Below, in pieces: positions 10,392-30,706 of a stretch of DNA of 43,968 bases. The notes under the pieces are model-generated. The model was not told where the DNA came from, made no database searches, and saw only the letters and a list, made by a program, of their open reading frames with translations. The translations under genes were made by a program, and so were the position numbers. Each line of letters opens with the position of its first letter. Positions within the stretch are counted from its first letter, which is position 1. Where the stretch lies: NCBI GenBank assembly GCA_044356455.1, contig JBIKWF010000028.1, positions 1-43,968 on the forward strand, written 5' to 3'. This stretch comes from Bdellovibrionota bacterium (GTDB lineage Bacteria; Bdellovibrionota_C; UBA2361; JBGSMV01).

Positions 10392-10413
10392 AGTGATACC
10401 TGGTAAAGCAGAG

Positions 10414-10583
10414 GTAGGGCGCTGTGTCCTCACAGTGCCGCATCTTCCACAGCGCCGCATCTTACACAGCGCCGCATCATACATAGTGCCGCATCATCTC
10501 CCACCTCGGCACATCCGTGAGCCTTCAGAATTCCGGTGCTGACGCACTCTCATCTTTCGGCGCCCTGGGGACAGGCGCCCTAC
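10414..10583. repeat. GTAG-type REP doublet (REPIN) with expanded interior
   Basis: GTAGGGCGCTGTGTCCTCACAGTGCCG ... CGGCGCCCTGGGGACAGGCGCCCTAC; a related copy is at 18714-18777. Confidence 0.75.
10431..10498 (+). repeat. 17-bp tandem repeat x4 inside the REPIN
   Basis: cacagtgccgcatcttc / cacagcgccgcatctta / cacagcgccgcatcata / catagtgccgcatcatc. Confidence 0.9.
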
Positions 10584-10730
10584 CTAGTCTCGTGATTTAG
10601 AGGTTCTCTGAAAAGCCCAATTAACGCGAAGGACACGAAGGTCGCGAAGGTAACCATTCGAATTCCTTCGTGTCCTTCGCGTTAAAATAGCCTTACAATT
10701 CTTAAGAGAGTTTGCAAATCACCACACTAG
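10584..10730. mobile_element. Putative MITE (family B) with CTAG ends
   Basis: Left ctagtctcgtgattt versus right aaatcaccacactag (15-bp IR, 2 mismatches). No ORF; single copy in the window. Confidence 0.5.
10621..10685. repeat. 9-nt-unit palindromic repeat, inward-facing type
   Basis: ttaacgcgaaggacacgaagg (10621-10641) and ccttcgtgtccttcgcgttaa (10665-10685) form a perfect 21-bp IR. Confidence 0.85.
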
Positions 10731-10745
10731 GGATCCGTTGAAGAA

Positions 10746-11014
10746 CTAGGAGTCTGTCCCGTAAAAAATTCCTACCACTACATGTTGTGGTGGCAACGGG
10801 ACAGCCTACCTAGCCCGTATTGCTCATACGCCCTACAAGGCTCCGAACTCCCTAGAGTGCTGCAAGTAGCCCATTGCGCGGACATCTCCTCGAATAGGGG
10901 CTCAACTCGCCTTTTCATTTCGCATATTTCGGCGCAACCGCAATGCTGCGTGAAAAGGCGGCTACGGATTGTGTCCAAGACGCAGATTAATCTTTCTTCG
11001 GGACACACTCCTAG
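10746..11014. mobile_element. MITE family A, copy 1 (261 bp plus CTAG flanks)
   Basis: CTAG|GAGTCTGTCCCG ... CGGGACACACTC|CTAG; a second copy is at 29332-29600. Confidence 0.85.
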
Positions 11015-11061
11015 CTCAGAGGAAAGTCAATTTAGGGTTTTCAAGGGTGCCCTGAAGAGTT

Positions 11062-12459
11062 TCAAACAGATTGGCATCGCGCAGACTGGAGTAGATAACT
11101 CGATAAGGAGAAGAGCTCCTGCTCCACTGCGGCCAAGAATCTTTCTATACGAGTGGCTTCTGAGACCGTAACCGGAGAAGAAAGGCGATCTACCAATTTT
11201 GGAATTCGAGCAGCATGAAAGGTTCCAATGCTGAGCCGCATTGCATTTCGTGCCCGCTGCCAGCTCGCGAGAAGCTGCTCATTACCTTCAGGGTTGGAGA
11301 GCACGCACTCTGAAGATGAGTGCTCCCACCAAACTGCGATAGTTCCGAACATGTCGGCTAAGCACTTGGCTCTACCTTGGAGCTCAGTCGCAACGGCTTT
11401 AGTTTTCGACTTGGCAGAATAAGTGTCTGCAAACCGCGTCCTTACCTCATCCAATCCTGCGGAGAAGTGGCCGATGCGATCAACAAATGAAAAGGTGAGG
11501 GGAGTTAGTTGTGTCATTTTAATCCTGGAGGCCGCGCTGACTACCTGCTCCAGATCTTCTAAAGGGACCTCCTCCCGCTCAGGTAAGGTTGCTTCCAGGG
11601 GGAAGGAACCTGCCAAAGGCTCAACTTCTTCCTCGATAGCCAGTCCCATCGTAGAAACTTTTCCTCGCGCCGAATCTTGGGCATGGACATCGGGCTCATC
11701 CTCCCTAAGAGATGCCCCAGGCACGGCAATCTCTTGCTTCGAAGCGACCGGTTCATTGCCCACTACTCTCGCTGATAACTCAGGAGCCGAAAGCAACGCA
11801 GCACTAGAATCCGCCAAATCTACTCTTTTTAGGGCAGAGCCTGGCAGCGCTGGCTCCTTGTTGCTGAGAGTCCCAGCTCCGATTTTTAATGTGTCCAGAA
11901 CGCCCGCGTTCAGAACTCCGCCTAAGCTTGAAACCGGAGGAAGTGGAGTAGCCCTCAGACGAGGAGGGGCCTTGAGCGCTACGCCCCTTAAATGGGCTAA
12001 ATCAGGAAAGACCGGTCTATCTGCATCGCTAGGAGCGCCGGCTCTCGCACAAGCTTTTGTGAAACGCACGTACTGCCGCGTTGTTTCTAGATCAAGCAAT
12101 ACAACTCTTTTTGAGCCTCTTTCAAAGTAGGTAAGTTGCTCCGCTCGCAAATCGAAGGAAGAGAAATCAATCGTAGAAAGATTCTCTTCCGACAATCCAG
12201 CCTTCACGAGAAGGCTCTTTAACTTTTCCCTACTTTGCTCAAGTTCAAGTGGAGATATCGGGGAAGAGGGCGGAGCGCCCGAGCGCTCAGTGAGAGAACT
12301 CTCGCTCGCATCGCGAAGAAGTCTCGCTTTAGCTACCTCGGGATTGTTTTTGAGATAGAGTTGCCGAAGAGTTCCGGGCTTTTTCCTCTCGGCAATATCA
12401 AAGGGACTCCCAGGTTGATAGCGACTCGAGGAAGACGAACTTGGCTTGTTGTTCAACAT
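11062..12459 (-). CDS. Hypothetical protein, paralog of 12471..14027; degenerate tyrosine-recombinase-like segment plus helical C-terminal domain
   Basis: 465-aa ORF sharing blocks with its neighbour (RYxPGSPFDI..KPGTL..LYL; GLS..NL..IDFSS; FP.LAHLR; GLAIE; WWE). Confidence 0.8.
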   Translation of the reverse strand: MLNNKPSSSSSSRYQPGSPFDIAERKKPGTLRQLYLKNNPEVAKARLLRDASESSLTERSGAPPSSPISPLELEQSREKLKSLLVKAGLSEENLSTIDFSSFDLRAEQLTYFERGSKRVVLLDLETTRQYVRFTKACARAGAPSDADRPVFPDLAHLRGVALKAPPRLRATPLPPVSSLGGVLNAGVLDTLKIGAGTLSNKEPALPGSALKRVDLADSSAALLSAPELSARVVGNEPVASKQEIAVPGASLREDEPDVHAQDSARGKVSTMGLAIEEEVEPLAGSFPLEATLPEREEVPLEDLEQVVSAASRIKMTQLTPLTFSFVDRIGHFSAGLDEVRTRFADTYSAKSKTKAVATELQGRAKCLADMFGTIAVWWEHSSSECVLSNPEGNEQLLASWQRARNAMRLSIGTFHAARIPKLVDRLSSPVTVSEATRIERFLAAVEQELFSLSSYLLQSARCQSV

Positions 12460-12470
12460 GGGAATACAAC

Positions 12471-14027
12471 TCAGGGATTAACACTAATCTCAAGAGTCAT
12501 TTGAAGCGGAGCGACTAAGTACAGACAAAAGGATTCAAGTTCACGCTCTGCTGCTTCAAGCGACCTGCACACACCTTCTTGTTGAGAAGAAGAAAGGGGC
12601 GCATCGAGCCGCTTTGCCAGATTCCGGAATTTAACGATGTCAAGTATCTGTAGTTTAAGCAATAAATCGCTTCGAGCTTGCCGCCAGCCATCAGCAAGAT
12701 CCTTAGGAGAGCGGCTATCGATGGTAAGACATCCCCCTGACTTATCCTCCCACCACTTCGAAACGGCAGCGAAGCTCTGTGCTAATCCAATAGCCTTCAA
12801 CCGTAGTTCTTGAGAACAGATCCCGTTGCTATCGTGGTTAGGCCCAGGTACCTCAATAGAAGTTCTCATTGCCTCGAAGCGCGAGACAAATTTATTGACT
12901 CTAGCTAAAAAGGAGCTAGAGAGCGCAACCGGCGCTTGATGAGAAAGCTTTTCTAGCTGTTCTAGCGCCTGCGTAAGCTCAGGCGTCACGGTGCCTACCT
13001 CAGTAATTTCCGGTTCAATAGCAAGCCCAGTAGCATAGACCGCAGGAGAAGCTGCTCGAGAAAATGAGCGAGGCCGAGGGGGTGCTCTCCTCTTTTTAGG
13101 TTTTTCAGCTAATGGCGCTGGTTCTGAATTCGCAGTCGCGTCACCCTGCTCACCTATGGGCTCACCTGAGGTACTCGAAATATTTGCGGAGTTAGGTGCC
13201 ATCTCTCGGGATGGGGAAGACGGCTCCTGGTTCGCCGTGGGGCTGGTCTCTTCTACCTGCACAGGGGAATCAGTCTGTGCGATAGTGGCAGTTAAAAATT
13301 CCTGGGCAGCTCGCTCAGATAACCCCGCAGTTTGAAGCTCATCAGTGCTAAATTCCGCTGGAGCGCCTTCTTCAAGAGGGGCGCCAGCAGTAGTGGCCGC
13401 TAAAGGAGAATCTTCAGTAGAGGGTGATTCTCCACTACTTGCCCCGCCTTTAGTGCTTTCATCCGTTTCGGGATCTGGAGTCTGAAAAGAATCACTAGAC
13501 GGATAGAATGAAGAGGCCCTACGCATCGAGGAAGGGGAAACCGCTAACCTTCTGAGGTGTGCGAGAGCGGGGAAAATTAGGCTATCTGCATCCCGGGAAG
13601 CGCCTTCACTTACACATGCCCGATCGAAGATTCTAAAGGATTCGATCAGGCCAGCACTTAGGGGCAGAGACTTCCTCGATCCACCATCGAAATAAGCAAC
13701 TCTACGTTCGCGTATCTTAACCGAGGAGAAATCAATAGATGCGAGATTCGCGTCCGAAAGGCCCTCCCTATTGAGAGCCGTCTTAAAAGTTTCCCTAGCC
13801 ACTTCAAGAGAGGGAGCTATCTGCACAAACTCTTGAAGAGGCAGACGTACCGGGTGATCCCGAGGCTTTTCTATTCGAGGCAGAGTTCCGCCGACAAGTT
13901 GTTGGTTTCTGCGCAAATAAAGTTCGCCAAGGGTGCCCGGCTTACTCTTCTCTACAATATCAAACGGACTTCCAGGTTCGTAGCGATACGGATGCCGTAA
14001 AGACGAATTCTTTTTACTATGCAACAT
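12471..14027 (-). CDS. Hypothetical protein, paralog of 11062..12459
   Basis: 518-aa ORF with the same conserved blocks and a longer S/E/P-rich linker. Confidence 0.8.
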   Translation of the reverse strand: MLHSKKNSSLRHPYRYEPGSPFDIVEKSKPGTLGELYLRRNQQLVGGTLPRIEKPRDHPVRLPLQEFVQIAPSLEVARETFKTALNREGLSDANLASIDFSSVKIRERRVAYFDGGSRKSLPLSAGLIESFRIFDRACVSEGASRDADSLIFPALAHLRRLAVSPSSMRRASSFYPSSDSFQTPDPETDESTKGGASSGESPSTEDSPLAATTAGAPLEEGAPAEFSTDELQTAGLSERAAQEFLTATIAQTDSPVQVEETSPTANQEPSSPSREMAPNSANISSTSGEPIGEQGDATANSEPAPLAEKPKKRRAPPRPRSFSRAASPAVYATGLAIEPEITEVGTVTPELTQALEQLEKLSHQAPVALSSSFLARVNKFVSRFEAMRTSIEVPGPNHDSNGICSQELRLKAIGLAQSFAAVSKWWEDKSGGCLTIDSRSPKDLADGWRQARSDLLLKLQILDIVKFRNLAKRLDAPLSSSQQEGVCRSLEAAERELESFCLYLVAPLQMTLEISVNP

Positions 14028-14184
14028 GGGAAAACTACCCCAGTGATTTCAAGTAGAGGACAGCGAGAGGCTATCCTACTTTCGGCCACTGAAACAAATG
14101 AGCTAACCTATCGAAATCATAGGCCGCCCCGCTCTCCGACCTCTCGCCTTAGCTGCTCGGGCTCGGGGTGCAGGTCAACTCTGT

Positions 14185-16071
14185 ATGTCAGTTTCTCTTT
14201 GCGCTAGTCTCCGCGAGATGTTGTCGACTGGTAGTTCTGGTTTCGGCCCTCTACGATTTCCAACCTCTGAGGATGGAGGCTCTAGCAACGTCCCAAGCGA
14301 GAAGCCGCTCGCTAACTATAATGAGCGCTACAACTCTTACCTTAAATCTCTCGCCCAATGGGCAGAGGCCGCTCGGCTTAATCGCAAATATTCCGATGCA
14401 ATGGACGCAGCCGCCGAGGTTCTGGGCGAACTTGGGTTTTCGTCATCCAAGGAAATTCTTGAAGTACCAGCAGCGGAAGTCTCTGCAAAGATACCTCATT
14501 CTCTTCGCCCTGCTGCCGGTCTCGCTCTCTTTGTTGTTTCAAGACAGTCCTGGACCAGGAGCAAGGAACTAGAGCACGTCCCCGCAGAAGCAGCATCTCT
14601 TCGCGAGCGCACGTACAAACTTCTTGCATTGGCCTGCGAGCTTGATCCCTCGAGCACTGAAAACCAACGCGCATTTCAAAATATAGCTTTTGAGTGCCGC
14701 CGCAGCATTTCGGACTATCAAGGCGCGAGCAGAAATGCCACTTCCAAGACAGCAACTTCCAAGACAGGCGCGGCCGATAAACCGATAGATCTTCTTACCC
14801 AAGGAGCCCTGGACTCTGTAAAGCGCTTTCTTACTGAACGCTTTAAGCTAAGGCTTCAAACCTTTGACTGGATTAGCTCCCACATGTCGGAGGAGGAGAG
14901 GGAGACTCTCAGCTGGGCCCTTGAACAGGCTGCAACGCTTGCGCACGCACGCGCCACTTCTCTGGTGCACCGAGACATTCAAAGATCTGCCAGTTATACC
15001 GGACAGGTGATGGAATACGGTCTGGGATGTTTCCGAAGTTTGGGACTCACCACTGAGCCGCGCAAGTTTAAGGATATTCACCCTCATGCGTTAGCCCGCC
15101 AGGGAGCTGATCAGGCGCGCATCAAGCGAATTATGCGCGTCGCCCGAATACTTTCCACAGCCTACCTAGCGCAGCGTGAGTTCACTGCTAGGGACGCCGC
15201 AGACAACTTAGCCGAACGAGCTGGAGAAGCGGAAGGCTCTGCACCGCAGAGCTCACGCCACATGCCGACAATTCCTGTGCTTGGCGAGAGACCTAGAAAG
15301 CCCGAGAGGCCTAAAACGTCAAGCACTGAGCCTCCCGCAGATACCACTGTGCTATCTCAAAAGCCCACAGTCCCGGCAGCTACCAGAGCGAGCAACGAAC
15401 CGACCCCGAACAATCCTCCTCAAGCCAATTCTCCCCAAGGCGCAGCTACAGAACACGGCGCTGCAAGAACTGGATACGAGGGGCTTCTAGTTCCCCCTGC
15501 GCACTCTCAGCCGCAAGCTGTCTCTGCAGCGCGCTCGCCAGCAACACCTATCGGCAAGAGCCGCTCAGAAATAACGGTTAATCACAAAGATTGGGCAGCT
15601 CTCCGCAAGGACATTGCCGAGTCACAGCCCTTCAACCTTGGAAGCGTTATCCTTAACGCATGCACCACACAATTTACCGTAGGCTCCGGGGGTAAGCTTG
15701 AGTATGCCTTTAAGAAGCATGGTTTATTTTCTCCGATTCCTTTTACCGAGGCCCTCAAGGAGTGCGCGCTAGACCTCGACATACTAAGGCGTGGAGGAGT
15801 GGCTGCGGCGAATCTTTTTATTGAGGAATATGGGGTTCTTTTTAGCGAAATGACCCAGGACCCGATTGCTCTCATACGACTTCAAGTTACCATGAGCTTT
15901 ATCAAGACGCGGAATCTTGTAAGCGATGAAAGGGCCGAGCAATTTCGAGGGCTGGCAACTGAATGTAATAAGGCCATCGTGGCTCTGGAACTGCGCCGCG
16001 ACCACAACACTGCGCAGAAAGTATTTGGTCCAATTGTTAGTGCGGCAATTGATGGAAGGCTGCGATCTTAG
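14185..16071 (+). CDS. Hypothetical protein: helical (possibly TPR-like) N-half, P/T/A-rich linker, helical C-domain
   Basis: 628-aa ORF; ALACELDPSSTENQRAF resembles a TPR end. The start may be the ATG at 14218. Confidence 0.7.
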   Translation: MSVSLCASLREMLSTGSSGFGPLRFPTSEDGGSSNVPSEKPLANYNERYNSYLKSLAQWAEAARLNRKYSDAMDAAAEVLGELGFSSSKEILEVPAAEVSAKIPHSLRPAAGLALFVVSRQSWTRSKELEHVPAEAASLRERTYKLLALACELDPSSTENQRAFQNIAFECRRSISDYQGASRNATSKTATSKTGAADKPIDLLTQGALDSVKRFLTERFKLRLQTFDWISSHMSEEERETLSWALEQAATLAHARATSLVHRDIQRSASYTGQVMEYGLGCFRSLGLTTEPRKFKDIHPHALARQGADQARIKRIMRVARILSTAYLAQREFTARDAADNLAERAGEAEGSAPQSSRHMPTIPVLGERPRKPERPKTSSTEPPADTTVLSQKPTVPAATRASNEPTPNNPPQANSPQGAATEHGAARTGYEGLLVPPAHSQPQAVSAARSPATPIGKSRSEITVNHKDWAALRKDIAESQPFNLGSVILNACTTQFTVGSGGKLEYAFKKHGLFSPIPFTEALKECALDLDILRRGGVAAANLFIEEYGVLFSEMTQDPIALIRLQVTMSFIKTRNLVSDERAEQFRGLATECNKAIVALELRRDHNTAQKVFGPIVSAAIDGRLRS

Positions 16072-16107
16072 ACTGCCGCGGTTTTTTGGTTGAATACTTC
16101 TTAAAAC

Positions 16108-16136
16108 AACCACGAAGAGCATAAAGACCACGAAGG
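16108..16136 (+). repeat. Solo arm of the 9-nt-unit repeat
   Basis: a-accacgaag-agcataaag-accacgaag-g; no clear partner arm. Confidence 0.55.
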
Positions 16137-16224
16137 AGGACTTTTCAGGTTCTCCGAAGGACAAAGTCCTTTAGCAAATATTTGCTCAACTCAAGCCCCA
16201 TCTTGTAGCCTTGCCCCACGCACC

Positions 16225-18717
16225 ATGTCGACACTCGCCTTACCCATCGAAGCAGTACTACCCGAGATTTCCTGTCATCTGCGCGGCTCTTCCCAACTCC
16301 TGCTACACGCAGAACCAGGCGCAGGCAAAACAACCCGCGTGCCCCTTACACTCCTTGAAGAGCCTTGGAGAAACGGTAAGAAGATTTTGATGCTGGAACC
16401 TCGTCGACTCGCGGCTCTAAGCGCCGCCGAATACATGAGCTCCCTGCGAAACGAGAATGCGGGAGCGACTATTGGATATCGTACTCGAGGCGCAACAAAA
16501 GTATCTGCGAGCACCATTCTTGAAGTAGTTACCGAAGGCATCCTCACCAGGCTCCTACTTGAAGACCCTGCTCTTTCTGATTACGCAGCGGTTATCTTCG
16601 ACGAGTTTCACGAAAGGAGTATCCACTCCGATCTTGGGCTCGCTTTTGTACTCGAGTCCCAAGGGTCTCTTCGGCCGGACCTTCGAGTCCTTGTGATGTC
16701 CGCGACTCTTGAAGTTGAAAAGCTAACCCGTCTTCTGCCGCAAGCCCGCCTTATACGCTGCCCAGGTCGCACGTTTCCCGTTGAGCTGCGCTACTCCCCC
16801 CCTACTCCACGCTCGAGTTTCGAAGATAACTTCTCCGACACCGTGGCAAATGCGCTACGAGAGACCACGGGCGATGTCCTCTGCTTTCTGCCCGGAAAGT
16901 CAGAAATTATGCGGGTAAAAGAGCGCCTCGACGGAAGAAGTTTTAGTCCATCTATCGAAGTCTTGCCCCTCGCCGGAGAGCTTGCCCTCAGCGAACAGCG
17001 CCGAGCTCTTGGACCTCTCGAATCAGGGAGACGTAAGGTTTTGCTTGCAACCTCAATTGCCGAAACAAGTCTCACTATCGATGGCATTAAAGTCGTCGTT
17101 GACGGTGGCCTCATGCGCGCACCTCGCATGGATCACGGACGGGGAATGACGGAACTCGCAACTCTGCCCGTCAGTCAGGCTTCTGCCATCCAGCGCATGG
17201 GACGGGCAGGAAGACAGGGACCGGGAATCTGCTACCGCATGTGGAGTGAATTTACTCAGCGCTCGCTTGCGCCTTTTTCCACTCCGGAAATCTTGAATGC
17301 CGACTGCACGGCTCTCCTGTTAGAAGTGGCGGCTTGGGGAGCACGGGATATTTCTGAGTTGTCCCTGATTGACCACCCTCCTCGAGAGGCGATTACTCAA
17401 GCCCAGAGAACTTTGATTGCCCTCGGCGCACTTAGTCCTGAATTCCAGATTACTGCGCATGGGAAGGATCTGGCCTCAATAGCCCTGCACCCTCGGCTTG
17501 GTCACATGGTACTTACCGCAGCAAAGCACGGCTTTGGTGAAATCGCCTGTGACCTTGCAGCACTGCTCGAGGAACGTGATGTTCTCTCCCGCGAGAAAGT
17601 CGATGTTTCTATGAGTGCGCGCTGGCACGCTCTGGACGACTACCGGGCACGCCGGGGGATAGCCGGCCGCAAGGACATTTTGGCACGAGCAGACCAGACC
17701 AGCGCGAGATTAAAGCAGCGCCTCAATCTTAAAGGCCAGGCGGACCATGCGTTTATTGGACAAGCTCTGGCGCTCGCTTTTCCTGAGTGGATAGCGAAAG
17801 GTCGAACTGAAGGGGGATGTAATTATCTCCTTGCAAATGGTTCAGGCGCTGCTCTTCCTCAAGGAAGCTACCTCGCTCGTCATAGATTCCTGGCAATCTG
17901 CGCCCTCGATGGATCAGGACCAAATGCGAGGATTCATCTTGCCGAGCCACTTTCTGAGAGCGAGCTTGAAGACATTGCAGGAACAAACCGCAAGAAACGT
18001 ACTTCTGTGATCTGGGATGAAGCATCGGGCGCAGTCAGAAGCTTCTCTGAGGACTGTCTTGGGGCCCTCGTGCTCCGCAGTAGTCCAGAGCGCGTCACTG
18101 ACGAGTATGCAATTCCGGTACTTCTTGAGAAGATCAAAGCCCTTGGAATCTCAGCTCTACCGTGGAGCAAGGAAGCGCTCAGTCTTAAAGATCGTCTCTT
18201 TTGGGCAAAAGCTAAGGGAGTACTTAGTTTGAATCTCCCGGCATTTGATGACGTGTGGCTCCTTGATAATCTTGAGACATGGCTTGCGCCGTTTCTTTCC
18301 GGCGTTCGGTCTCTTAAAGATCTTGCAAAAGTAGATCTGGAGATGGCACTCAGCAGCCAACTCACAAGAAATGACTTGCGTGATCTTGAAGCTGCGGCCC
18401 CCGCATACCTTGAGCTTCCGACGGGCACAAAGGCCTGGATTAGCTACGGTGAGCATCCCACCATTTCAGTCGCGCTACAGGAACTCTTTGGAAGCACCAA
18501 GACGCCTGCCATTGCGGGAGGTAAAGTCCCGCTCACTATCGAGCTTCTTTCTCCGGCAAAGCGTCCGCTTCAGGTCACCAAGGATCTGATTTCATTTTGG
18601 GACACGACTTACCCAAAGCTACGCTCAGAAATGAGGGCGAAGTATCCGCGCCATGAGTGGCCAGAAAATCCGAGAGAGGCTCCGCCGTCCAGGGGCCGCA
18701 AGCCTCGGAAGAGGTAG
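16225..18717 (+). CDS. hrpB: ATP-dependent RNA helicase HrpB
   Basis: AEPGAGKTTRVP, LEPRRLAA, DEFHERS, MSATL, FLPG, ATSIAETSLTIDGI, QRMGRAGR, and C-terminal LLSPA.RP.QVT.DL..FW...Y...R..MR.KYPRH.WP. Confidence 0.95.
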   Translation: MSTLALPIEAVLPEISCHLRGSSQLLLHAEPGAGKTTRVPLTLLEEPWRNGKKILMLEPRRLAALSAAEYMSSLRNENAGATIGYRTRGATKVSASTILEVVTEGILTRLLLEDPALSDYAAVIFDEFHERSIHSDLGLAFVLESQGSLRPDLRVLVMSATLEVEKLTRLLPQARLIRCPGRTFPVELRYSPPTPRSSFEDNFSDTVANALRETTGDVLCFLPGKSEIMRVKERLDGRSFSPSIEVLPLAGELALSEQRRALGPLESGRRKVLLATSIAETSLTIDGIKVVVDGGLMRAPRMDHGRGMTELATLPVSQASAIQRMGRAGRQGPGICYRMWSEFTQRSLAPFSTPEILNADCTALLLEVAAWGARDISELSLIDHPPREAITQAQRTLIALGALSPEFQITAHGKDLASIALHPRLGHMVLTAAKHGFGEIACDLAALLEERDVLSREKVDVSMSARWHALDDYRARRGIAGRKDILARADQTSARLKQRLNLKGQADHAFIGQALALAFPEWIAKGRTEGGCNYLLANGSGAALPQGSYLARHRFLAICALDGSGPNARIHLAEPLSESELEDIAGTNRKKRTSVIWDEASGAVRSFSEDCLGALVLRSSPERVTDEYAIPVLLEKIKALGISALPWSKEALSLKDRLFWAKAKGVLSLNLPAFDDVWLLDNLETWLAPFLSGVRSLKDLAKVDLEMALSSQLTRNDLRDLEAAAPAYLELPTGTKAWISYGEHPTISVALQELFGSTKTPAIAGGKVPLTIELLSPAKRPLQVTKDLISFWDTTYPKLRSEMRAKYPRHEWPENPREAPPSRGRKPRKR

Positions 18718-18777
18718 GGCGCCGCGTCCTCGCGGTGCCGCATGATCTCTCGGCGCCCCGAGGACAGGGCGCCCTAC
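18714..18777. repeat. GTAG-type REP doublet (REPIN) overlapping the hrpB stop codon
   Basis: GTAGGGCGCCGCGTCCTCGCGGTGCCG...CGGCGCCCCGAGGACAGGGCGCCCTAC. Confidence 0.8.
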
Positions 18778-18947
18778 CAGGGCTTTTCTGGTGAGTCGAA
18801 TGCTTCGACGTTGGACACCCACCAACTAAGTGTAGTGTTACCCTACGAAAACCTCCTTAAGTTCAATAGCTTACGTGCCTAGAACGGGCCCTTTTATACC
18901 CTCTGCCTTAAGTCATATCTCCTCGGAATTCCTTCATATTTCATTCT

Positions 18948-21200
18948 ATGTCCTTCGGATCAGACATGGGAAGATTAGCTCCTCAACGCGAGGCAGCTCA
19001 AAGCACCCCTGCGCGTGAGGAGCTCCTTGTCCCCGCAGCCGAGCCAAAGGCGACCGCTCCTGAACCAGTAAAGCCTCCCACCGCACCCGACCCACTTTCT
19101 CAGCCGCCAGGGATGCAGCTGCAAACACCACCGCCTGCACCGATTCAAACACCGCAAGACCTACAGGCAACAACTCAAAGCAACGCACTCAAAGCCTTAG
19201 CCAAGGATTTTGATAATACCTCTGCCCTTATGGCAGCTGCCGAGCGCAGCGCTACGCAGCGTATTCGGGAAGAAGCAAAAATTCAGGAACTACCAACAAC
19301 AGTTCACATAAGAGTAGAAGAAGTTCGCACTCCTAAAGTAGATATCTCGATGCTCGTAGTCGTAACTACGGAAACCACAAAAGCGAAAGTTGCTGCCTTA
19401 GCGCACGACGCAAAGCATCAAGAAGAGCGCCCCTCCCCTCTTTTCTCACGCCCTTCCGAAAAACCGGAAAAGGATTCTAAAGTTCAGGAGCCGCAAAAAT
19501 CTGCAATTCTTGAACCTAAACCAAACGAGCTAAAGCCTCTGGCAGAGCAGCGTCCGTTTGAGAATCGCGAAAGGCCCCTTGGACTTGTTCAAGAGAAGCC
19601 GCCCCCCGACAAGGCTCTTGAAGCAGTGCGGGATAGTAAGCAGGAAAGAGTCACGAACGTAGACGGCATCAAACGCGTGGGGGAACAAACTCCCCTCGCA
19701 CCTCCGCCGCAGCCTCAACCACTTTCTCCCTCGCTCTCTCCCGCTCCGGCCACTGCAAATTCAGCGCCGCATGTAAGTTCACCGGCCGCTTTATCGCAGC
19801 CTACCTTGAAGATTCCCGAGCGTCAGAGCGAATTACCATCTCAGCCACAATCTAATAAGGTAGCAGCCGAATCTGCTGCTCAGGCAAAGGCGCAGGTCGT
19901 AGAGAAGAGCATGCCTGCTCCCAGCACGCGCATCGAAGTCATTCGAGTCGAATCCCCCGCAGAACATCGGCCAGCGGCGGCAGGAGCGCCTCGACAGAGC
20001 GCCGAGATTTCACCTCGGGCGTCTGAAACCACCACGCGCGTAGTTCTGCGCGCGCCCAGTACTGGGGTAGCGAGCAGTCCAATAGAGGTCGTATACCGAT
20101 TTGTCGCGGCGGTCCGTGAGCGATTTGCTCCATCTCCCGAAATTAACCAGGTACGACATCCAAGTACGCCTCGAAGCGCATCTGCTCCTGATTCCAGAAT
20201 AGTCGTCCATGCAGGCAGTGGGGAGGCAAGAAGTCAGAATACTTTGGGGCCTACCGGCACCACCTTGCCACGCTCAGAGCGCATACTGACGGGGACAGGT
20301 ACAGTTCATGCCCAACCACGATCTCACGTTGAGACCGCTCCAAGGCCCCCTTCTTCACGGGGTGTGACCCCAACCGCCTTAGGACGAGAGGCGCAACCTC
20401 GCCTACAAGATCGCGCTACTCGAGACATTGCTCTCCCCAGAACAGGAGCTGCCACCTCCGTGTCTCGCGCTTCCTCTGAACGAGCAATAAAAGTACAAGC
20501 GTCTCACCAGCATACAGAGCGCAAGCAATCTCAGGCAGAAGCGCGAAGAACTGTTGATATTCTTCGTCAAGAGAAGACTACTATCGCAGGCACCCGAATA
20601 ACGAGAGTCGTCAGAAGTGGGCAGGTGCCTATAAGAGCAGGGTCATTACGAGAGCGTCTTGTTGACAAGCTACGCTTTAGCGATGGCACGCCTGTAGAAA
20701 AAGTGGTGCGCGAAGTCGCTCGCGCGGTGAAAAATCTCTTCCAGCCCCTCGCCGCAGATTCGGAGATTGCTCCAGTCGTAACGAAGGAAAGCGATTTCGA
20801 AGAAACGCCCAAAGAGCACCAAGAAATGATTCTCGAACCCGAACATGAGCGCGAAGAGGGAATGGAAACAGAGCACATGATTCCCCAAAATCTAGAAAAA
20901 GAGCGCTTCCCCAAGCTCGATCCGCTCAAGGATGAACCGATTGCTATCTACACTATTCGTGGAAACGTTTTTGATAATGACTCCGGCAAGCCGCAAGCAG
21001 GCGTGGTAATTCGAAGCGGATTGCTCGGCACCACTACAACAGACGGAAACGGGAATTATAGCTTTGAGAACGTACCAGAAGGCACCTTTTTTATTATCAC
21101 TGCCCATGCGAGAGGAGTGAGGTTTCACCCCGGATTTGCGAGTGGTACCGTGAGTGGTCACACGACTCGTGATTTTCGTGCGATAGTTCTGAGTCACTAA
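18948..21200 (+). CDS. Long P/A/E/S/R-rich protein with a C-terminal carboxypeptidase-regulatory-like (transthyretin-fold) domain
   Basis: 750 aa. C-terminal YTIRGNVFDNDSGKPQAGVVI...TTTDGNGNYSFENVPEG fits that fold; no signal peptide is evident. Confidence 0.7.
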   Translation: MSFGSDMGRLAPQREAAQSTPAREELLVPAAEPKATAPEPVKPPTAPDPLSQPPGMQLQTPPPAPIQTPQDLQATTQSNALKALAKDFDNTSALMAAAERSATQRIREEAKIQELPTTVHIRVEEVRTPKVDISMLVVVTTETTKAKVAALAHDAKHQEERPSPLFSRPSEKPEKDSKVQEPQKSAILEPKPNELKPLAEQRPFENRERPLGLVQEKPPPDKALEAVRDSKQERVTNVDGIKRVGEQTPLAPPPQPQPLSPSLSPAPATANSAPHVSSPAALSQPTLKIPERQSELPSQPQSNKVAAESAAQAKAQVVEKSMPAPSTRIEVIRVESPAEHRPAAAGAPRQSAEISPRASETTTRVVLRAPSTGVASSPIEVVYRFVAAVRERFAPSPEINQVRHPSTPRSASAPDSRIVVHAGSGEARSQNTLGPTGTTLPRSERILTGTGTVHAQPRSHVETAPRPPSSRGVTPTALGREAQPRLQDRATRDIALPRTGAATSVSRASSERAIKVQASHQHTERKQSQAEARRTVDILRQEKTTIAGTRITRVVRSGQVPIRAGSLRERLVDKLRFSDGTPVEKVVREVARAVKNLFQPLAADSEIAPVVTKESDFEETPKEHQEMILEPEHEREEGMETEHMIPQNLEKERFPKLDPLKDEPIAIYTIRGNVFDNDSGKPQAGVVIRSGLLGTTTTDGNGNYSFENVPEGTFFIITAHARGVRFHPGFASGTVSGHTTRDFRAIVLSH

Positions 21201-21351
21201 GCTGCAAGAGGCGCGCCTTGGTCTTACAGCCAGTGCCCGGGGTTTTGTGAGCTATCGCTTATAATGCCCCTACATTGAGTGGAAGACCAAATCTAGACTT
21301 CTGCAACTAAGCTAAGGGACCTCCGAAAAGCACCACTATTCTATTTTCACT

Positions 21352-21424
21352 CTCTGTGAACTCTGTGTCCTCTGTGGTTTTTCAACAATTTAAATCAACC
21401 ACAGAGGGCACAGAGTTCACAGAG
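21352..21424. repeat. 9-nt-unit palindromic repeat, outward-facing type
   Basis: ctctgtgaactctgtgtcctctgtggtt (21352-21379) and aaccacagagggcacagagttcacagag (21397-21424): 28-bp IR with 1 mismatch and an AT-rich spacer. Confidence 0.9.
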
Positions 21425-21433
21425 CTGACTTTT

Positions 21434-22297
21434 TCAGAGATTCGCTAACTTCCTCTCGGGAAACATCCTTTCCGGTCCAAAGTATTCTAGAAATTTACGC
21501 GCCAGCTGCTTTGCTCGCTTTGGATTCTCTTCAAGCTTCACCGAGAACTTCGCTTTACGATAAAGAAGCTCTGTAATTCTCTCTACACGAATTTCGCGGG
21601 CAGAGTTCATCGAAGCATAAAGAGCCTCAAGTTCACGGTTGTGCTTGGGCTCTATAGTAATAGAGAAGACATAGTCCCCAATTACGCTAAGGTAAGTATT
21701 CATGTCGTCAGCAAAGGGACCGCGGGCAAATGAATACCTAATAACTTCCTTGGGCCACGCAGGAACATAGAGCCTGTCAAGATACGTGTTTCCGCCAATA
21801 ATTTTTGAAATGCGCCACGCATTACGCTTAAGCACTCTGTGGAAAGCGAGTTGCTTATCATGGTGAATAAGATGCACCCAAGGGTGAGGCTCCCACTCAT
21901 ACATGAGATCCTGCTTTGTCTGCTTAAAGAGCGCAGTCTTGGTATGCACCCAAAAATTTGAGACTCGGCAGAAATCGGAGCACTTCCAGGTCTTGCGTTT
22001 CACTAAGTCAGGAAGGATTGTGCTCAGGGGCGCTTTTGCTACGTACTGGTCATGAATCACATCCCCTAAGTTCACGAAATCGAGCGCCCACGCCATAGAA
22101 AGACTGTATTCGCGCTTTAGTCGCACCACGACCCCTACGCGCTGCAGTTTGTGAAGCTCTTTAAAGATGGCTTGTGCGGAATATCTTTTGAAGTCTTTCG
22201 CTATGGCCTGGCGAATCTGTTCGGCACTCATTCCCGGGTCATGCGCCAGAACTTTTACAATAAGCTCTTCAAGAGATTCATTCGTTTGCAATAACAT
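21434..22297 (-). CDS. Putative winged-helix transcriptional regulator with an unknown C-terminal domain
   Basis: LIVKVLAHDPGMSAEQIRQAI...YSAQAIFKELHKLQRVGVV..KREYSL is a wHTH pattern. ATG at 22297; the ORF track starts at 22330. Confidence 0.65.
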   Translation of the reverse strand: MLLQTNESLEELIVKVLAHDPGMSAEQIRQAIAKDFKRYSAQAIFKELHKLQRVGVVVRLKREYSLSMAWALDFVNLGDVIHDQYVAKAPLSTILPDLVKRKTWKCSDFCRVSNFWVHTKTALFKQTKQDLMYEWEPHPWVHLIHHDKQLAFHRVLKRNAWRISKIIGGNTYLDRLYVPAWPKEVIRYSFARGPFADDMNTYLSVIGDYVFSITIEPKHNRELEALYASMNSAREIRVERITELLYRKAKFSVKLEENPKRAKQLARKFLEYFGPERMFPERKLANL

Positions 22298-27210: not shown

Positions 27211-27645
27211 CTATTTGATAGGATCAAAGACTTTTTCGAATTCGTATTGCAGGAAATGCTTCGGATTGTGGGTAGCGAAACGAGAAACGCCGCGGTGTGA
27301 AAGCGTGAGGGCCAAACGTGCGTCAAAAATTTCGCGCCGAGCAAAGTTCTTCCTTTTGGCCAGCGCCCAAATCTTATCCATGAGCGCGCCTGGATAATCG
27401 ATGACACGCCAACTCGGATTTGCTCTGAATTGCTCAACAATATTGATGGCCTCAGAACTACTCATCGGATTGGCTACTACAGATGGGGTGCGCAATAAGA
27501 CATAAAGCTCGATTAACACTAATTCACATACTGCAAAAAGTTCGTTGTTCCACTCGGCCTCAATAAATTCCTTTGCAGCCGCATGCTCTTTGCAGTCCGC
27601 GTTTAAGTAGTAGAGCAATATATTTGTGTCGCAACTGGTGAGCAT
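27211..27645 (-). CDS. vapC: VapC-family PIN-domain toxin
   Basis: DTNILLY, VLIELY, IFDARLA, THN: PIN acidic residues. Confidence 0.85.
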   Translation of the reverse strand: MLTSCDTNILLYYLNADCKEHAAAKEFIEAEWNNELFAVCELVLIELYVLLRTPSVVANPMSSSEAINIVEQFRANPSWRVIDYPGALMDKIWALAKRKNFARREIFDARLALTLSHRGVSRFATHNPKHFLQYEFEKVFDPIK

Positions 27646-27885
27646 TTAGTCCTCCGCAAGGTTCGCCATTTCTCGCCAGCTCTCGCTATTGGACCTAAAT
27701 TTTCCAAGCTTGAGAGGCCTGGGAGGAGTCGTCGGAATAACCTCACTCTTGTACTGAGGATACATTATCAAGATTTGCTCAGCGCCGCGGCGCACTGCCT
27801 CCGCGAGCGACCATTCCTTTGCGGAAGCGAGCCTTTTTAAGGCGAGATACAACTCATCCGGAAGCTGCAACTGAGTTTTCTTCAT
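27646..27885 (-). CDS. Ribbon-helix-helix antitoxin (VapB/CopG-like)
   Basis: MKKTQLQLPDELY..LKRLA....SLAEAVRRG is an RHH pattern; it abuts the vapC start. Confidence 0.85.
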   Translation of the reverse strand: MKKTQLQLPDELYLALKRLASAKEWSLAEAVRRGAEQILIMYPQYKSEVIPTTPPRPLKLGKFRSNSESWREMANLAED

Positions 27886-28340: not shown

Positions 28341-29203
28341 CAGCGCGTTTCCTCATTGTTCTCAAGCAGTTCGCGGGCAAAGGCTACGGCGGAGGCTGAG
28401 CCTGCAAGGACTGTATAATGAACAGCACCACCTTCTGAGCTGAGCCTTCTCACTTCGTGATATTTTCCGCCTGCTTCTTCGATGAGGATTCTAAGACTTG
28501 CGATGTCCCAAAGCCTTACATTCCACTCGAGCGTGAGGTCGAGTTTCCCGAGAGCCACTGCGGTTTGACTGTAGCAAGTGTAGAACATGCGCGTCTGTGG
28601 ATATGCGGAGAGAAACGCAGAAAGCCTTGGAATTTCATTGCCCTTCTTTAAAAATCCATTCGGTGAGCTTACTGCAACTACTTGGTCGACTGCCGGACGT
28701 AAAGAATCCGTTAGGCGCACCCTTTTTCCTTCACAGAAGGTACCGAGACCGTGCGCAGCAAATATGCGCGACTCTGAACCCATGGAAGGATGGTCTATCA
28801 CCCCAACAAGCGGATGCCCACAGTAGTAGAGCGCAAGAATGGAGCCCCACGTTGGAATACCGCGGGTAAGGTCGAGAGTTCCATCGACTGGGTCAGTGAC
28901 AAACTGAAAAGGCGCGTCGGGATTGGTGTGTCCCTGCTCCTCCCCGAGAATTCCTGCTTCCGGGAGGAGCTGAGCAGCAAGCGCGCGAACTGCCTTCTCT
29001 CCCGCAACATCGGCGGCGGTTACAACCGTGCGATCTGACTTTATAGAAGAGCTGTTGCCCTTGGTGAGCTCGGAGTTCACTGCGGCTCGAAGGGCATCTG
29101 CGATGGTAAGTGTTATCGACTTGAGCTCTTCAACGCGAGCGGGAGGCAATTCACTTCTGCGGTCTAAGGCGCCGCGCTGTTCAAGAAGAGGAGGTGGCGT
29201 CAT
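28340..29203 (-). CDS. Inositol monophosphatase family protein (HisN/SuhB-like)
   Basis: VTAAD..GE, ILGEE, DPVDGT, WDIA motifs. Start placed at ATG 29203 (or 29239); the longer ORF runs into the MITE. Confidence 0.85.
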   Translation of the reverse strand: MTPPPLLEQRGALDRRSELPPARVEELKSITLTIADALRAAVNSELTKGNSSSIKSDRTVVTAADVAGEKAVRALAAQLLPEAGILGEEQGHTNPDAPFQFVTDPVDGTLDLTRGIPTWGSILALYYCGHPLVGVIDHPSMGSESRIFAAHGLGTFCEGKRVRLTDSLRPAVDQVVAVSSPNGFLKKGNEIPRLSAFLSAYPQTRMFYTCYSQTAVALGKLDLTLEWNVRLWDIASLRILIEEAGGKYHEVRRLSSEGGAVHYTVLAGSASAVAFARELLENNEETR

Positions 29204-29331
29204 AACGGCTATGAGCAGCGGTGCGACGGCAGGGAGCATCCGCCGGGTCAATTTGTTCTCTTCCGTATTTCTAACTTTGGTATGGTTTCTAAGCAACTTT
29301 TCTACCGATTTGTCGATTAGGGATAGAAGGG

Positions 29332-29600
29332 CTAGGAGTCTGTCCCGTAGAAAGTTCCGACCACTACATGTTGTGGTGGCAACGGGACAGCCCACCTAGC
29401 CCCTATTGCTCATACGCCCTACAAGGCTCCGAACTCCCTAGAGTGCTGCAAGCAGCCCATTGCGCGGACATCTCCTCGAATAGGGGCTCAGCTCGCCTTT
29501 TCATTTCGCATATTTCGGCGCGACCGAACTGCTGTGTGAAAAGGCGGCTACGGATTGTGTCCAAAATGAAGATTTATGTTTCTACGGGACACACTCCTTG
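29332..29600. mobile_element. MITE family A, copy 2
   Basis: CTAG|GAGTCTGTCCCGTAGAAA ... TTTCTACGGGACACACTC|CTTG; 261 bp, collinear with 10750-11010, about 17 substitutions by hand count. Confidence 0.85.
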
Positions 29601-29602
29601 GT

Positions 29603-29626
29603 CGCGGAGACACGGAGACCGCGGAG
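29603..29626 (+). repeat. Left 24-bp inverted repeat of the GxxExxY cassette
   Basis: cgcggagacacggagaccgcggag ends immediately before the ATG at 29627. Confidence 0.9.
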
Positions 29627-30012
29627 ATGGAAATCAACCAGATTACCGAAAAGATTATAGGTGCGGCTATCAAGGTGCACTCACTGCTGGGACCAGGCCT
29701 CTTCGAGCAGGTCTACAAGGCATGCCTATTCCGCGAGCTCCAAAAGCAGAGCATCAAGGTTGCCAAAGAGGTCATGTTCCGGTGCTCTATGACTGCGAAT
29801 TAATAGACCTAGGGTACCGCCTAGACCTGCTAGTAGAGTCAGAGGTAATCGTTGAGTTAAAGGCGATCGAACGTCTTACCAGAGTCCATAGAACCCAGGT
29901 GCTAACTTATCTGAAGTTATCTCAAAAAACTGTTGGACTACTCATAAATTTCAATGCGGTACCGCTTAAGGATGGAATCGTGCGCATCGTTCGAGGTTAC
30001 GCAGGACCTTAA
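29627..30012 (+). pseudogene. GxxExxY protein (PD-(D/E)XK-like), frameshifted
   Basis: Frame 1 gives [45 protein letters not shown]; frame 2 continues PVLY..GYRLDLLVESEVIVELKA..HRTQVLTYLK..GLLINF. One base is missing near 29776-29778. Confidence 0.85.
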
Positions 30013-30014
30013 CC

Positions 30015-30038
30015 CTCCGCGGTCTCCGTGTCTCCGCG
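30015..30038 (-). repeat. Right 24-bp inverted repeat of the GxxExxY cassette
   Basis: ctccgcggtctccgtgtctccgcg is the exact reverse complement of 29603-29626 and starts 2 nt after the stop. Confidence 0.9.
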
Positions 30039-30173
30039 CTAATCCCTTCTTAACCCCATCTATGGAGTTTCCTCGAACATTCAAGTAGGAAGGGAACTTG
30101 GGCCTACCTCATATTAGGTGGCAATGAGGCTCACGGGGGGGGGCATTCTTAACTCCCCTTTTCCTATTGCCCC

Positions 30174-30593
30174 TCAATGCACTACTGCCGGCAAGCGCTC
30201 GGCAGCTTCTGCTCTCTCAAGCTTGCGCTGCGCAGGTGCCCAAGCATCATCATAGGAACTCAGTCCCTCAAGGGCGGCCGTAGCCTCCTTCTTAAGCTTC
30301 TGGATGCTGGCAGAATCCATGCTTTCTGCTGTGTCCACGGAATCGGCAAGAACGACGAGCTTTCCGTCTACAAAATTGCAGAATCCTCCGGCAACTACGA
30401 CAGGCTTTCCTTTCTGCCCGCTTGCCAGTTCATAGGAAAGGACCCCAACGCCAATAGTTCCTGTATAGCGACAGTGATTGGGTAGTAGACCAATTTCCCC
30501 CTGCTCCGATGGCAGGCTCACCGAGGAGACCTGCTCTTCAAATACAAGACCAGCCGGAGTTAGAACCCTTAGGGTGAAATTATCTTGCGCCAT
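30174..30593 (-). CDS. atpC: ATP synthase epsilon subunit
   Basis: LRVLTP, LPSEQGEIGLLPNH, VAGGF, VLAD; follows atpD. Confidence 0.92.
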   Translation of the reverse strand: MAQDNFTLRVLTPAGLVFEEQVSSVSLPSEQGEIGLLPNHCRYTGTIGVGVLSYELASGQKGKPVVVAGGFCNFVDGKLVVLADSVDTAESMDSASIQKLKKEATAALEGLSSYDDAWAPAQRKLERAEAAERLPAVVH

Positions 30594-30640
30594 ACCGTAC
30601 CTTGCCTCTCGGAAGCCACGAATCTCAAACTAAATACATT

Positions 30641-30706
30641 CCTTCGTGGCCTCTGTGGTCTTAGTGGTAAATTCCTGAACCACTAAGACCACTAAGACCA
30701 CCAAGG
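30641..30706. repeat. 9-nt-unit palindromic repeat, outward-facing type, between atpD and atpC
   Basis: ccttcgtggcctctgtggtcttagtggt / accactaag-accactaag-accaccaag-g. Confidence 0.8.

Follow-up and report, generated by a model that had tools for sequence, protein, structure and literature searches.

What does a small nuclease gene do when it lies exactly between the two arms of an inverted repeat, and how is it connected with the many copies of those arms that lack it? This question is raised by a locus in a 43,968-nucleotide (nt) stretch of DNA, hereafter the window, which is contig C138 of the assembly of a Bdellovibrionota bacterium (4.7 Mb in 216 contigs, 93% complete). Between an inositol-monophosphatase-family gene and atpC, the window carries a gene of the GxxExxY family, boxed by a perfect 24-nt inverted repeat whose arms are arrays of a 7-base word. 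Our results demonstrate that the association between GxxExxY genes and such arms is general and far above chance, and that gene-less copies far outnumber gene copies in this genome. From comparison of these sequences, we propose that the GxxExxY nuclease may read the word arrays as DNA and promote their copying through host repair, a reading that we consider evenly poised between right and wrong.

The framed gene and its repeated unit

An earlier note on this DNA had described the gene as packaged exactly between perfect inverted repeats, and this description holds. The arms are 100% complementary with 388 nt between them (Table 1), the ATG at 29627 starts on the first base past the left arm, and the TAA at 30010-30012 is followed by CC and then by the right arm. 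The 9-nt period claimed for the arms needs amending: GGAG does recur, at arm positions 4, 12 and 21, with spacings of 8 and 9 nt, so that the period is not exact. Within the left arm, the middle GGAG stops 9 nt short of the ATG and could serve as the ribosome-binding site, as had been suggested. The arm was found nowhere else in the window at up to 3 mismatches, and 100 shuffles gave an expectation of 0.00.

The frame of the window gene is broken. Read from 29627, it meets a stop at 29801-29803 after 58 residues, and the remainder continues in a different frame as far as 30012; each piece matches PF13366 above its cut-off of 22 bits (51.4 bits over profile positions 1-50 and 78.5 bits over positions 47-117). 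A paralogue on contig C216 (C-numbers denote contigs) has one more C at the site matching 29776 and an open frame of 138 amino acids (aa), which matches both family models end to end (PF13366, 138.7 bits, E 1.5e-40; TIGR04256, 140 bits against a cut-off of 35, E 4.1e-41). Its own stop codon is mutated (TAA to AAA), so that the frame reads through the right arm. The frameshift after 29776 could be an assembly error. Metagenome contigs were taken from Logan for lake-water runs (X1-X4 for positions 28700-30500; X1, X2, X5 and X6 for positions 10000-22000), and the gene contig has the intact, C216-like form, with +C after 29776 and 30010 T>A, and its depth is about 3.4-fold that of the unique flanks. 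Because these contigs collapse several gene copies, they neither confirm nor refute the frameshift of the window copy.

The predicted protein has the features of the PD-(D/E)XK superfamily, with the E...D...E-x-K residues placed on an alpha-beta core in the AlphaFold model (predicted local distance difference test score 88.8). Residues E27 (of GxxExxY), D67, E77 and K79 are invariant in 11 of 11 aligned homologues from this genome and its order. The nearest folds are those of Cas4 SSO0001 (4ic1, Z 8.0), the BpuSI nuclease domain (3s1s, 7.8) and Hjc (1gef, 6.6), together with lambda-exonuclease-type enzymes; these matches, middling at a best VIA Z of 8.0 and a best Foldseek E of 3.7e-3, settle the fold of the protein and not its substrate. 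A sequence search of solved structures returned RelE only, at E 0.13-0.25, which we took as noise. The one paper found to list GxxExxY/PDDEXK_3, a large family, gives its function as unknown and records multiple transfers (PMC3424549).

Across the genome, the arm is abundant. A pattern search allowing up to 3 mismatches found 44 arms, of which 32 match exactly, 6 have a single mismatch and 6 have two, and the reversed control of the pattern found 0. The repeat breaks the assembly, as many of the arms are located no more than a few hundred bases from a contig end. Complete arm pairs surround a non-coding filler of 118-120 nt in eight cases (units of 164-168 bp) and the gene in two. The order of modules is constant, namely a 5' module (~130 nt), sometimes a nested foreign element, an arm, the interior, an arm and a 3' tail (~58 nt), and the map comprises 16 5' modules, 42 arms, 23 tails and, as interiors, 17 fillers and 3 copies of the gene. 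The 5' module copies always adjoin an arm or the nested element, and the tail copies always adjoin a right arm, the tail hairpin also appearing in the computed fold. Gene remnants beyond the three mapped copies are two 3' ends at contig ends (C18, C4) and one truncated copy (C180).

About 20 units are thereby shown to carry these arms, at least 3 with the gene and 17 with the 118-nt filler. The filler is unrelated to the gene, since local alignments between them score 17 and 15 and shuffles score up to 29, and the arms act as a frame with exchangeable content. The earlier view that gene plus arms form a unit is thus right in that the gene sits exactly between the arms, and too narrow in that the repeated unit is larger and the same arms also hold the filler. 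Unit edges are sharp, the left one being marked by AACGGCTATGAGC and the right one by GAAGAGAAC; AAC flanks every unit on both sides, so that a target duplication is indistinguishable from element sequence. Divergence from the consensus amounts to 18 of 1056 positions (1.7%) in the arms, 4.3% in the filler and 3.7% in the tail. One filler unit with a truncated 5' module (locus L010, C169:30042-30420) lies between direct repeats of ~50 nt at ~85% identity (AATCAGCCCAGCAAGT...GAACGATTTGGG), which could be a long duplication from insertion or recombination.

In the window, an unrelated insertion resembling a miniature inverted-repeat transposable element (MITE) is nested within the unit. It has its own 20-nt inverted repeat (29334-29353 and 29579-29598, 95%; AGGAGTCTGTCCCGTAGAAA), its ends occur in ~107-109 copies in the genome, and an inner 140-nt piece (29401-29540) occurs in 18 copies, which makes three nesting levels within one intergenic region. 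The C216 copy is without this insertion, its 5' module directly adjoining the arm, and contigs from four metagenome runs likewise join 29334/29336 to 29600/29603. The nested insertion and the frameshift together mark the window copy as decaying. Decay of GxxExxY copies is common in the order, as many copies in relatives have internal stops or are partial (G001:C22, G002:C307, G004:C64, C130 and C47; G000 is the genome holding the window, and the other G-numbers are same-order relatives). Copies such as that of the window may be decaying members of a selfish or semi-domesticated population.

The 5' module also contains a promoter-like motif. In 9 GxxExxY loci from 7 same-order genomes, GCAAC-N16-CGA(T/A)TA is found upstream of the left arm at a distance of 7-18 nt, after a GC-rich hairpin and TTTGTTCTC; in the window it reads GCAAC (29293-29297), 16 nt, CGATTA (29314-29319), and has been shifted 283 nt from the arm by the nested insertion. 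It resembles the FliA consensus mapped in Bdellovibrio bacteriovorus, TTAAG-N16-CCGATA (PMC3627812), and we call it sigma-28-like. The strict form GCAAC-YYY-N13-CGAWTA has 28 sites in the genome, and a looser form has 47 against 24 for the reversed control. Strict sites are also found upstream of recA and of pilin-like, SctJ-like lipoprotein, three ORF6N-like, HicA-like and IS200-like genes (names assigned by eye). Sites of the motif in G000 were recorded at C133:1522, C112:31218, C7:21287, C39:19016, C127:43645, C196:5909, C79:41407 and C150:40451. Cassettes and filler units would be transcribed from about the left arm through this sigma-28-like promoter.

Word arrays across the genome and across phyla

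All five PF13366 loci of the genome carry flanking arms, those in the window and on C216 and C36 having the 24-nt arm. The genes on C1 and C211 are not close copies of the window gene, and their arms differ in sequence and are alike in build: AAACCACAGAG-CG-CACAGAG-AA-CACAGAGG with its complement on C1 (29 nt, 93%) and TTTAACGCGAAGG-A-CGCGATGGG-CACGAAGG with its complement on C211 (34 nt, 97%). In 8 of 13 full-length loci from this genome and same-order relatives, the flanking inverted repeats outscore every cross-locus control, and 3 further loci have word arrays, identified by eye, on at least one side.

The earlier note had called for a search for periodic inverted repeats beside GxxExxY genes elsewhere. 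We assembled 80 GxxExxY loci, scanning one genome per species, from Planctomycetota, Bacteroidota, Acidobacteriota, Verrucomicrobiota, Chloroflexota, Cyanobacteria, several proteobacterial classes and others, and defined an array strictly as at least two words C[AG]C[ACG][AG]AG, 1-4 nt apart and oriented towards the gene. An array is present on at least one side in 57 of the 80 loci (left 44, right 44, both 31), where about one is expected. This expectation derives from the 42 arrays counted in 171,613 nt of sequence at distances above 300 nt from the gene, a rate of 0.016 per scanned interval and strand, or about 1 locus in 80. Off-pattern words form arms in several of the 23 loci scored as having none. 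The 7-base word CRCRRAG is kept across phyla, usually after TTAAC, TCACC or AAACC. No description of the pairing between GxxExxY genes and arms was found in the literature, most subscription journals lying outside the search.

Within the order, 31 genomes were compared. Arrays occur in 8 of the 9 genomes that have the gene over cut-off and in 4 of the 22 others (Fisher p 4.8e-4, a value that overstates the significance because kin among these genomes are not independent). Arrays of three words are present in 12 of the 31 genomes, with 547 in the genome studied here, followed by 208, 81, 79, 40, 37, 16, 15, 8, 8, 4 and 1, and the reversed control gives 0-2 per genome.

A separate count of arrays of at least three words in this genome gave 550, mainly of CACAGAG (414), CGCGGAG (58) and CGCGAAG (32). 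Its three gene lineages have these word classes too; this match is weak evidence alone because CACAGAG is the commonest word everywhere. The genome holds hundreds of gene-less hairpins from sister word families, and most arrays form ~150 short hairpins. Those of CGCGAAG have the polarity of the cassette and a 16-nt loop. Those of CACAGAG are inside-out with respect to the cassette, the right array coming first, then a loop of 20-29 nt and then the left array, and they make up the centre of a 140-bp element bounded by 20-nt terminal inverted repeats of its own (CCTAGGGAACCTCTGAAAAA / TTTTTCAGAGGTTCCCTAGG), present in 160 complete copies. No target duplication was detected for this element, 2-nt flank matches (10 of 160) being at chance level. 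Only 6 of 156 short hairpins lie within open reading frames (ORFs) of at least 100 aa, against 647 of 780 random positions, and the genes flanking the 156 hairpins are convergent in 48 cases, co-directional in 80 and divergent in 15. The hairpin distribution is therefore like that of repetitive extragenic palindromic (REP) sequences, intergenic and favouring gene 3' ends.

Some further features of the arrays were observed. In the 140-bp element, at window positions 21300-21470 and ~160 other places, the spacers differ consistently between the arms (GG/TT versus GA/AT). Arrays have expanded to 15 (C121:47970) and 5 (C168:32046) tandem units of CGCGAAGGA, and thus can grow like microsatellites. 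One arm pair on C120 with gene polarity and another interior was rejected as a further cassette; it is merely two hairpins around a small zinc-finger-like host gene.

Table 1. Features of the GxxExxY locus and of gene-less hairpins in the window (ssDNA, single-stranded DNA; z, z-score of the computed fold).
Feature	Position	Strand	Description
5' module	29195..29335	+	begins AACGGCTATGAGC; GC-rich hairpin, then TTTGTTCTC, then promoter-like motif; 16 copies
Nested MITE-like insertion	29336..29598	+	263 nt, unrelated; between promoter-like motif and left arm
Left arm	29603..29626	+	CGCGGAG-A-CACGGAG-AC-CGCGGAG; three CRCRRAG heptamers with 1- and 2-nt spacers; full arm CGCGGAGACACGGAGACCGCGGAG
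GxxExxY (PF13366/TIGR04256) PD-(D/E)XK nuclease gene	29627..30012	+	frameshifted; 1-nt deletion after 29776
Right arm	30015..30038	-	exact reverse complement of left arm
3' tail module	30039..30098	+	CTAATCCCTTCTTAACCCC ... GTAGGAAGGGAAC; internal hairpin; 23 copies
Gene-less hairpin, CGCGAAG words	10625..10681	.	left array, 16-nt loop, right array; ssDNA fold z = -10.1
Gene-less hairpin, CACAGAG words	21352..21424	.	right array, loop, left array; core of 140-bp element; ssDNA fold z = -10.0
Gene-less hairpin, CACTAAG/CACGAAG words	30642..30705	.	between atpD and atpC, inside ATP synthase operon; fold z = -6.4

Elsewhere in the window, adjacent ORFs of 144 and 79 aa on the minus strand (27211-27885) look by eye like a PIN-domain toxin and a short antitoxin.

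Possible explanations: DNA copying, RNA structure or passenger gene

According to the reading that we propose, the nuclease would bind the DNA of the 7-base word arrays and cut there or immediately alongside, and host repair or recombination would then copy the array-bounded units to new intergenic sites. By analogy with REP-associated tyrosine transposases (RAYTs), which act on REP doublets forming hairpins (REPINs), the nuclease may also act in trans on gene-less copies. A wider form of the proposal makes GxxExxY the trans-acting partner of pan-bacterial heptamer-array hairpins, an HUH-independent system on the REPIN/RAYT scale with, here, three word families having their own gene lineages, and with transcription from a promoter of the sigma-28 type that recA and pilin genes would also use. 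This wider form is tentative, and its chances are slightly below even.

The pattern of mismatches between arms bears on whether the arrays act as DNA or as RNA. In 36 gene-flanking loci with 1430 paired columns, we counted 49 G.T, 42 A.C and 90 other mismatches (binomial p 0.53). Mismatches in 32 gene-flanking arm pairs affect 34 of 603 word positions (5.6%) and 43 of 189 spacer positions (22.8%), words being marked on the left arm only; in 150 short hairpins of the genome the spacer mismatch is 229 of 617, the corresponding word figure being constrained by the search pattern. The lack of a G-U bias and the complementarity within words favour arrays of DNA binding sites over an RNA stem, and a conserved word with free spacers is what makes the arrays resemble binding sites. 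The GxxExxY protein is the only factor common to all loci.

Alternatively, the locus could be an RNA device, in which a transcript starting at the upstream motif has its arms paired as a 24-bp panhandle that occludes the ribosome site, stabilises the message or forms an RNase III site, on the model of the 23S rRNA intervening sequences that bear an ORF, the gene-less hairpins being terminators or insulators. The arms do pair in the minimum-energy fold of a 541-nt stretch (z = -4.1), the GGAG lies within the arm at a suitable place ahead of the ATG, the promoter-like motif ends just before the left arm in the nine loci described above, and the hairpins are intergenic and favour gene 3' ends. 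The stem hiding the ribosome-binding site that the earlier note had considered is to that extent possible. However, G-U pairs are not in excess over A-C, spacers are often unpaired while words are kept, and the word itself, which is not needed for a stem, is conserved across phyla, where most of its variants (CACAGAG, CGCAAAG, CGCCAAG) are not Shine-Dalgarno-like. Scans of 28900-30700 gave 0 sigma-70-like promoters and 0 intrinsic terminators, Rfam gave no match at E up to 1 in 28800-30400, and 0 of 56 pairs of the filler are compensatory in the four copies available. We regard an RNA device as improbable.

Another explanation makes GxxExxY a passenger: the hairpins would be repeats of the host or independently mobile ones, moved by another enzyme or by replication slippage and recombination, and GxxExxY would be a small selfish gene that homes into them or travels between them, using the arms only as a landing site. 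Such a gene would fit with units that extend past the arms and hold an unrelated filler in the same frame, with 140-bp elements that end in outer terminal repeats of their own and lack a target duplication, with arrays in genomes where no gene was detected, and with the decay of gene copies in the window, on C180 and in several relatives. Against it, no alternative enzyme tracks the arrays. The Y1 transposase (PF01797) is present in 28 of the 31 related genomes and, being nearly ubiquitous, does not explain the patchy arrays. Arms occur at 57 of 80 gene loci and arrays far from the gene are rare there, and three gene lineages in one genome each have a different arm word. These observations leave the passenger explanation unlikely in our view. 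That the repeat is due to chance or to assembly has next to no probability: the assembly is indeed a 216-contig metagenome assembly with many contigs broken by the repeat, and the collapsed metagenome contigs with the intact gene would suit an erroneous frameshift, but shuffles give an expectation of 0.00, the genome holds 44 arm copies, and the architecture is found in independent assemblies of many phyla.

Several points weigh against copying by the nuclease. A lone PD-(D/E)XK nuclease cannot join DNA, so that the host would have to supply every copying step. The units have conserved modules beyond the arms, and the 140-bp CACAGAG elements are bounded by separate outer terminal repeats; mobilisation could act on these outer ends instead of on the word arrays. 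A promoter that places the transcript start at the arm suits an RNA role equally. Arrays without a detected gene exist in 3-4 genomes, namely G012 (37), G015 (8), G018 (4) and G027 (1), and G002 has the gene without arrays. Word type does not follow the protein tree: it needs 29 changes, where shuffles need 31.1 on average and 46-60 of 500 reach a count that low, so that cognate specificity is not supported; unit position 5 alone (16 of 500 shuffles) was discounted. In the orthologous site comparison, AtpC of the four nearest genomes is 37-49% identical and without synteny with the inositol-monophosphatase-family gene; no arrays lie beside atpC in these four genomes, which are too distant for insertion boundaries to be defined. 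No empty site or circle was distinguishable in the lake-water metagenome contigs, which end at repeats; the joints found there are other unit copies, with filler for gene, without the nested element, or as tandem tail-to-head units like those on C36.

Linking the function-unknown GxxExxY family to a sequence-defined DNA partner makes a direct bench test possible, and this genome is a favourable case, with a young identical-arm family, both interior types, gene copies in intact and in broken form, and two sister families of greater age. If the nuclease does read word arrays, this would explain hundreds of unannotated intergenic hairpins in many phyla that break metagenome assemblies, and would place a new class of enzyme among the few systems that fill bacterial genomes with repeats.

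Comparison with known systems

The arrangement was compared with several systems that it resembles in part. Integron cassettes have a single downstream attC and an integron integrase nearby; unlike attC, the arms here are present on both sides of the gene. With Cas4, RecB, lambda exonuclease and Hjc, the protein shares the core fold and the E...D...ExK residues, but it has no iron-sulfur cluster module and no partner genes, and its context is unrelated. The intervening sequences of 23S rRNA carry an ORF for a four-helix-bundle protein (PF05635) in a long stem, and are similar in having a small ORF in the loop of a long perfect stem and a patchy distribution among bacteria; they differ in that the present unit is not in an rRNA gene, the protein family is another one and the arms consist of word arrays. 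This genome (93% complete) yielded no PF05635 match, and none as cargo in the same arms. Like insertion sequences and MITEs, the units have identical 24-nt inverted ends around either a 388-nt coding or a 118-nt non-coding interior (at least 3 versus 17 units). Unlike these, they encode no known transposase class, the filler is no deletion derivative, the arms are not the unit ends, and there is no clear target duplication.

The closest comparison is with REPtrons, that is, REP/REPIN sequences with their RAYT (TnpA-REP, HUH Y1) genes (PMC3333891, PMC3733652, PMC8266576). REP palindromes have a GTAG or CGTC tag as a feature (PMC3733652). The analogy with RAYT and REP that the earlier note drew, with a different enzyme, survives in its layout and not in its components, as neither an HUH enzyme nor a tagged single palindrome is present. 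The enzyme here is a ~125-aa PD-(D/E)XK nuclease instead of an HUH Y1 protein (PF01797). The repeat consists of 2-4 heptamer words at 8-10-nt spacing without GTAG or CGTC at the arm ends, genomes hold several copies of the gene, some of them decayed, and the same word is used across phyla. What the two systems have in common is an enzyme gene set within inverted copies of the repeat, gene-less hairpins that outnumber it and are intergenic and biased towards gene 3' ends, a patchy distribution coupled to the gene, and, for the 140-bp elements, the lack of target duplication.

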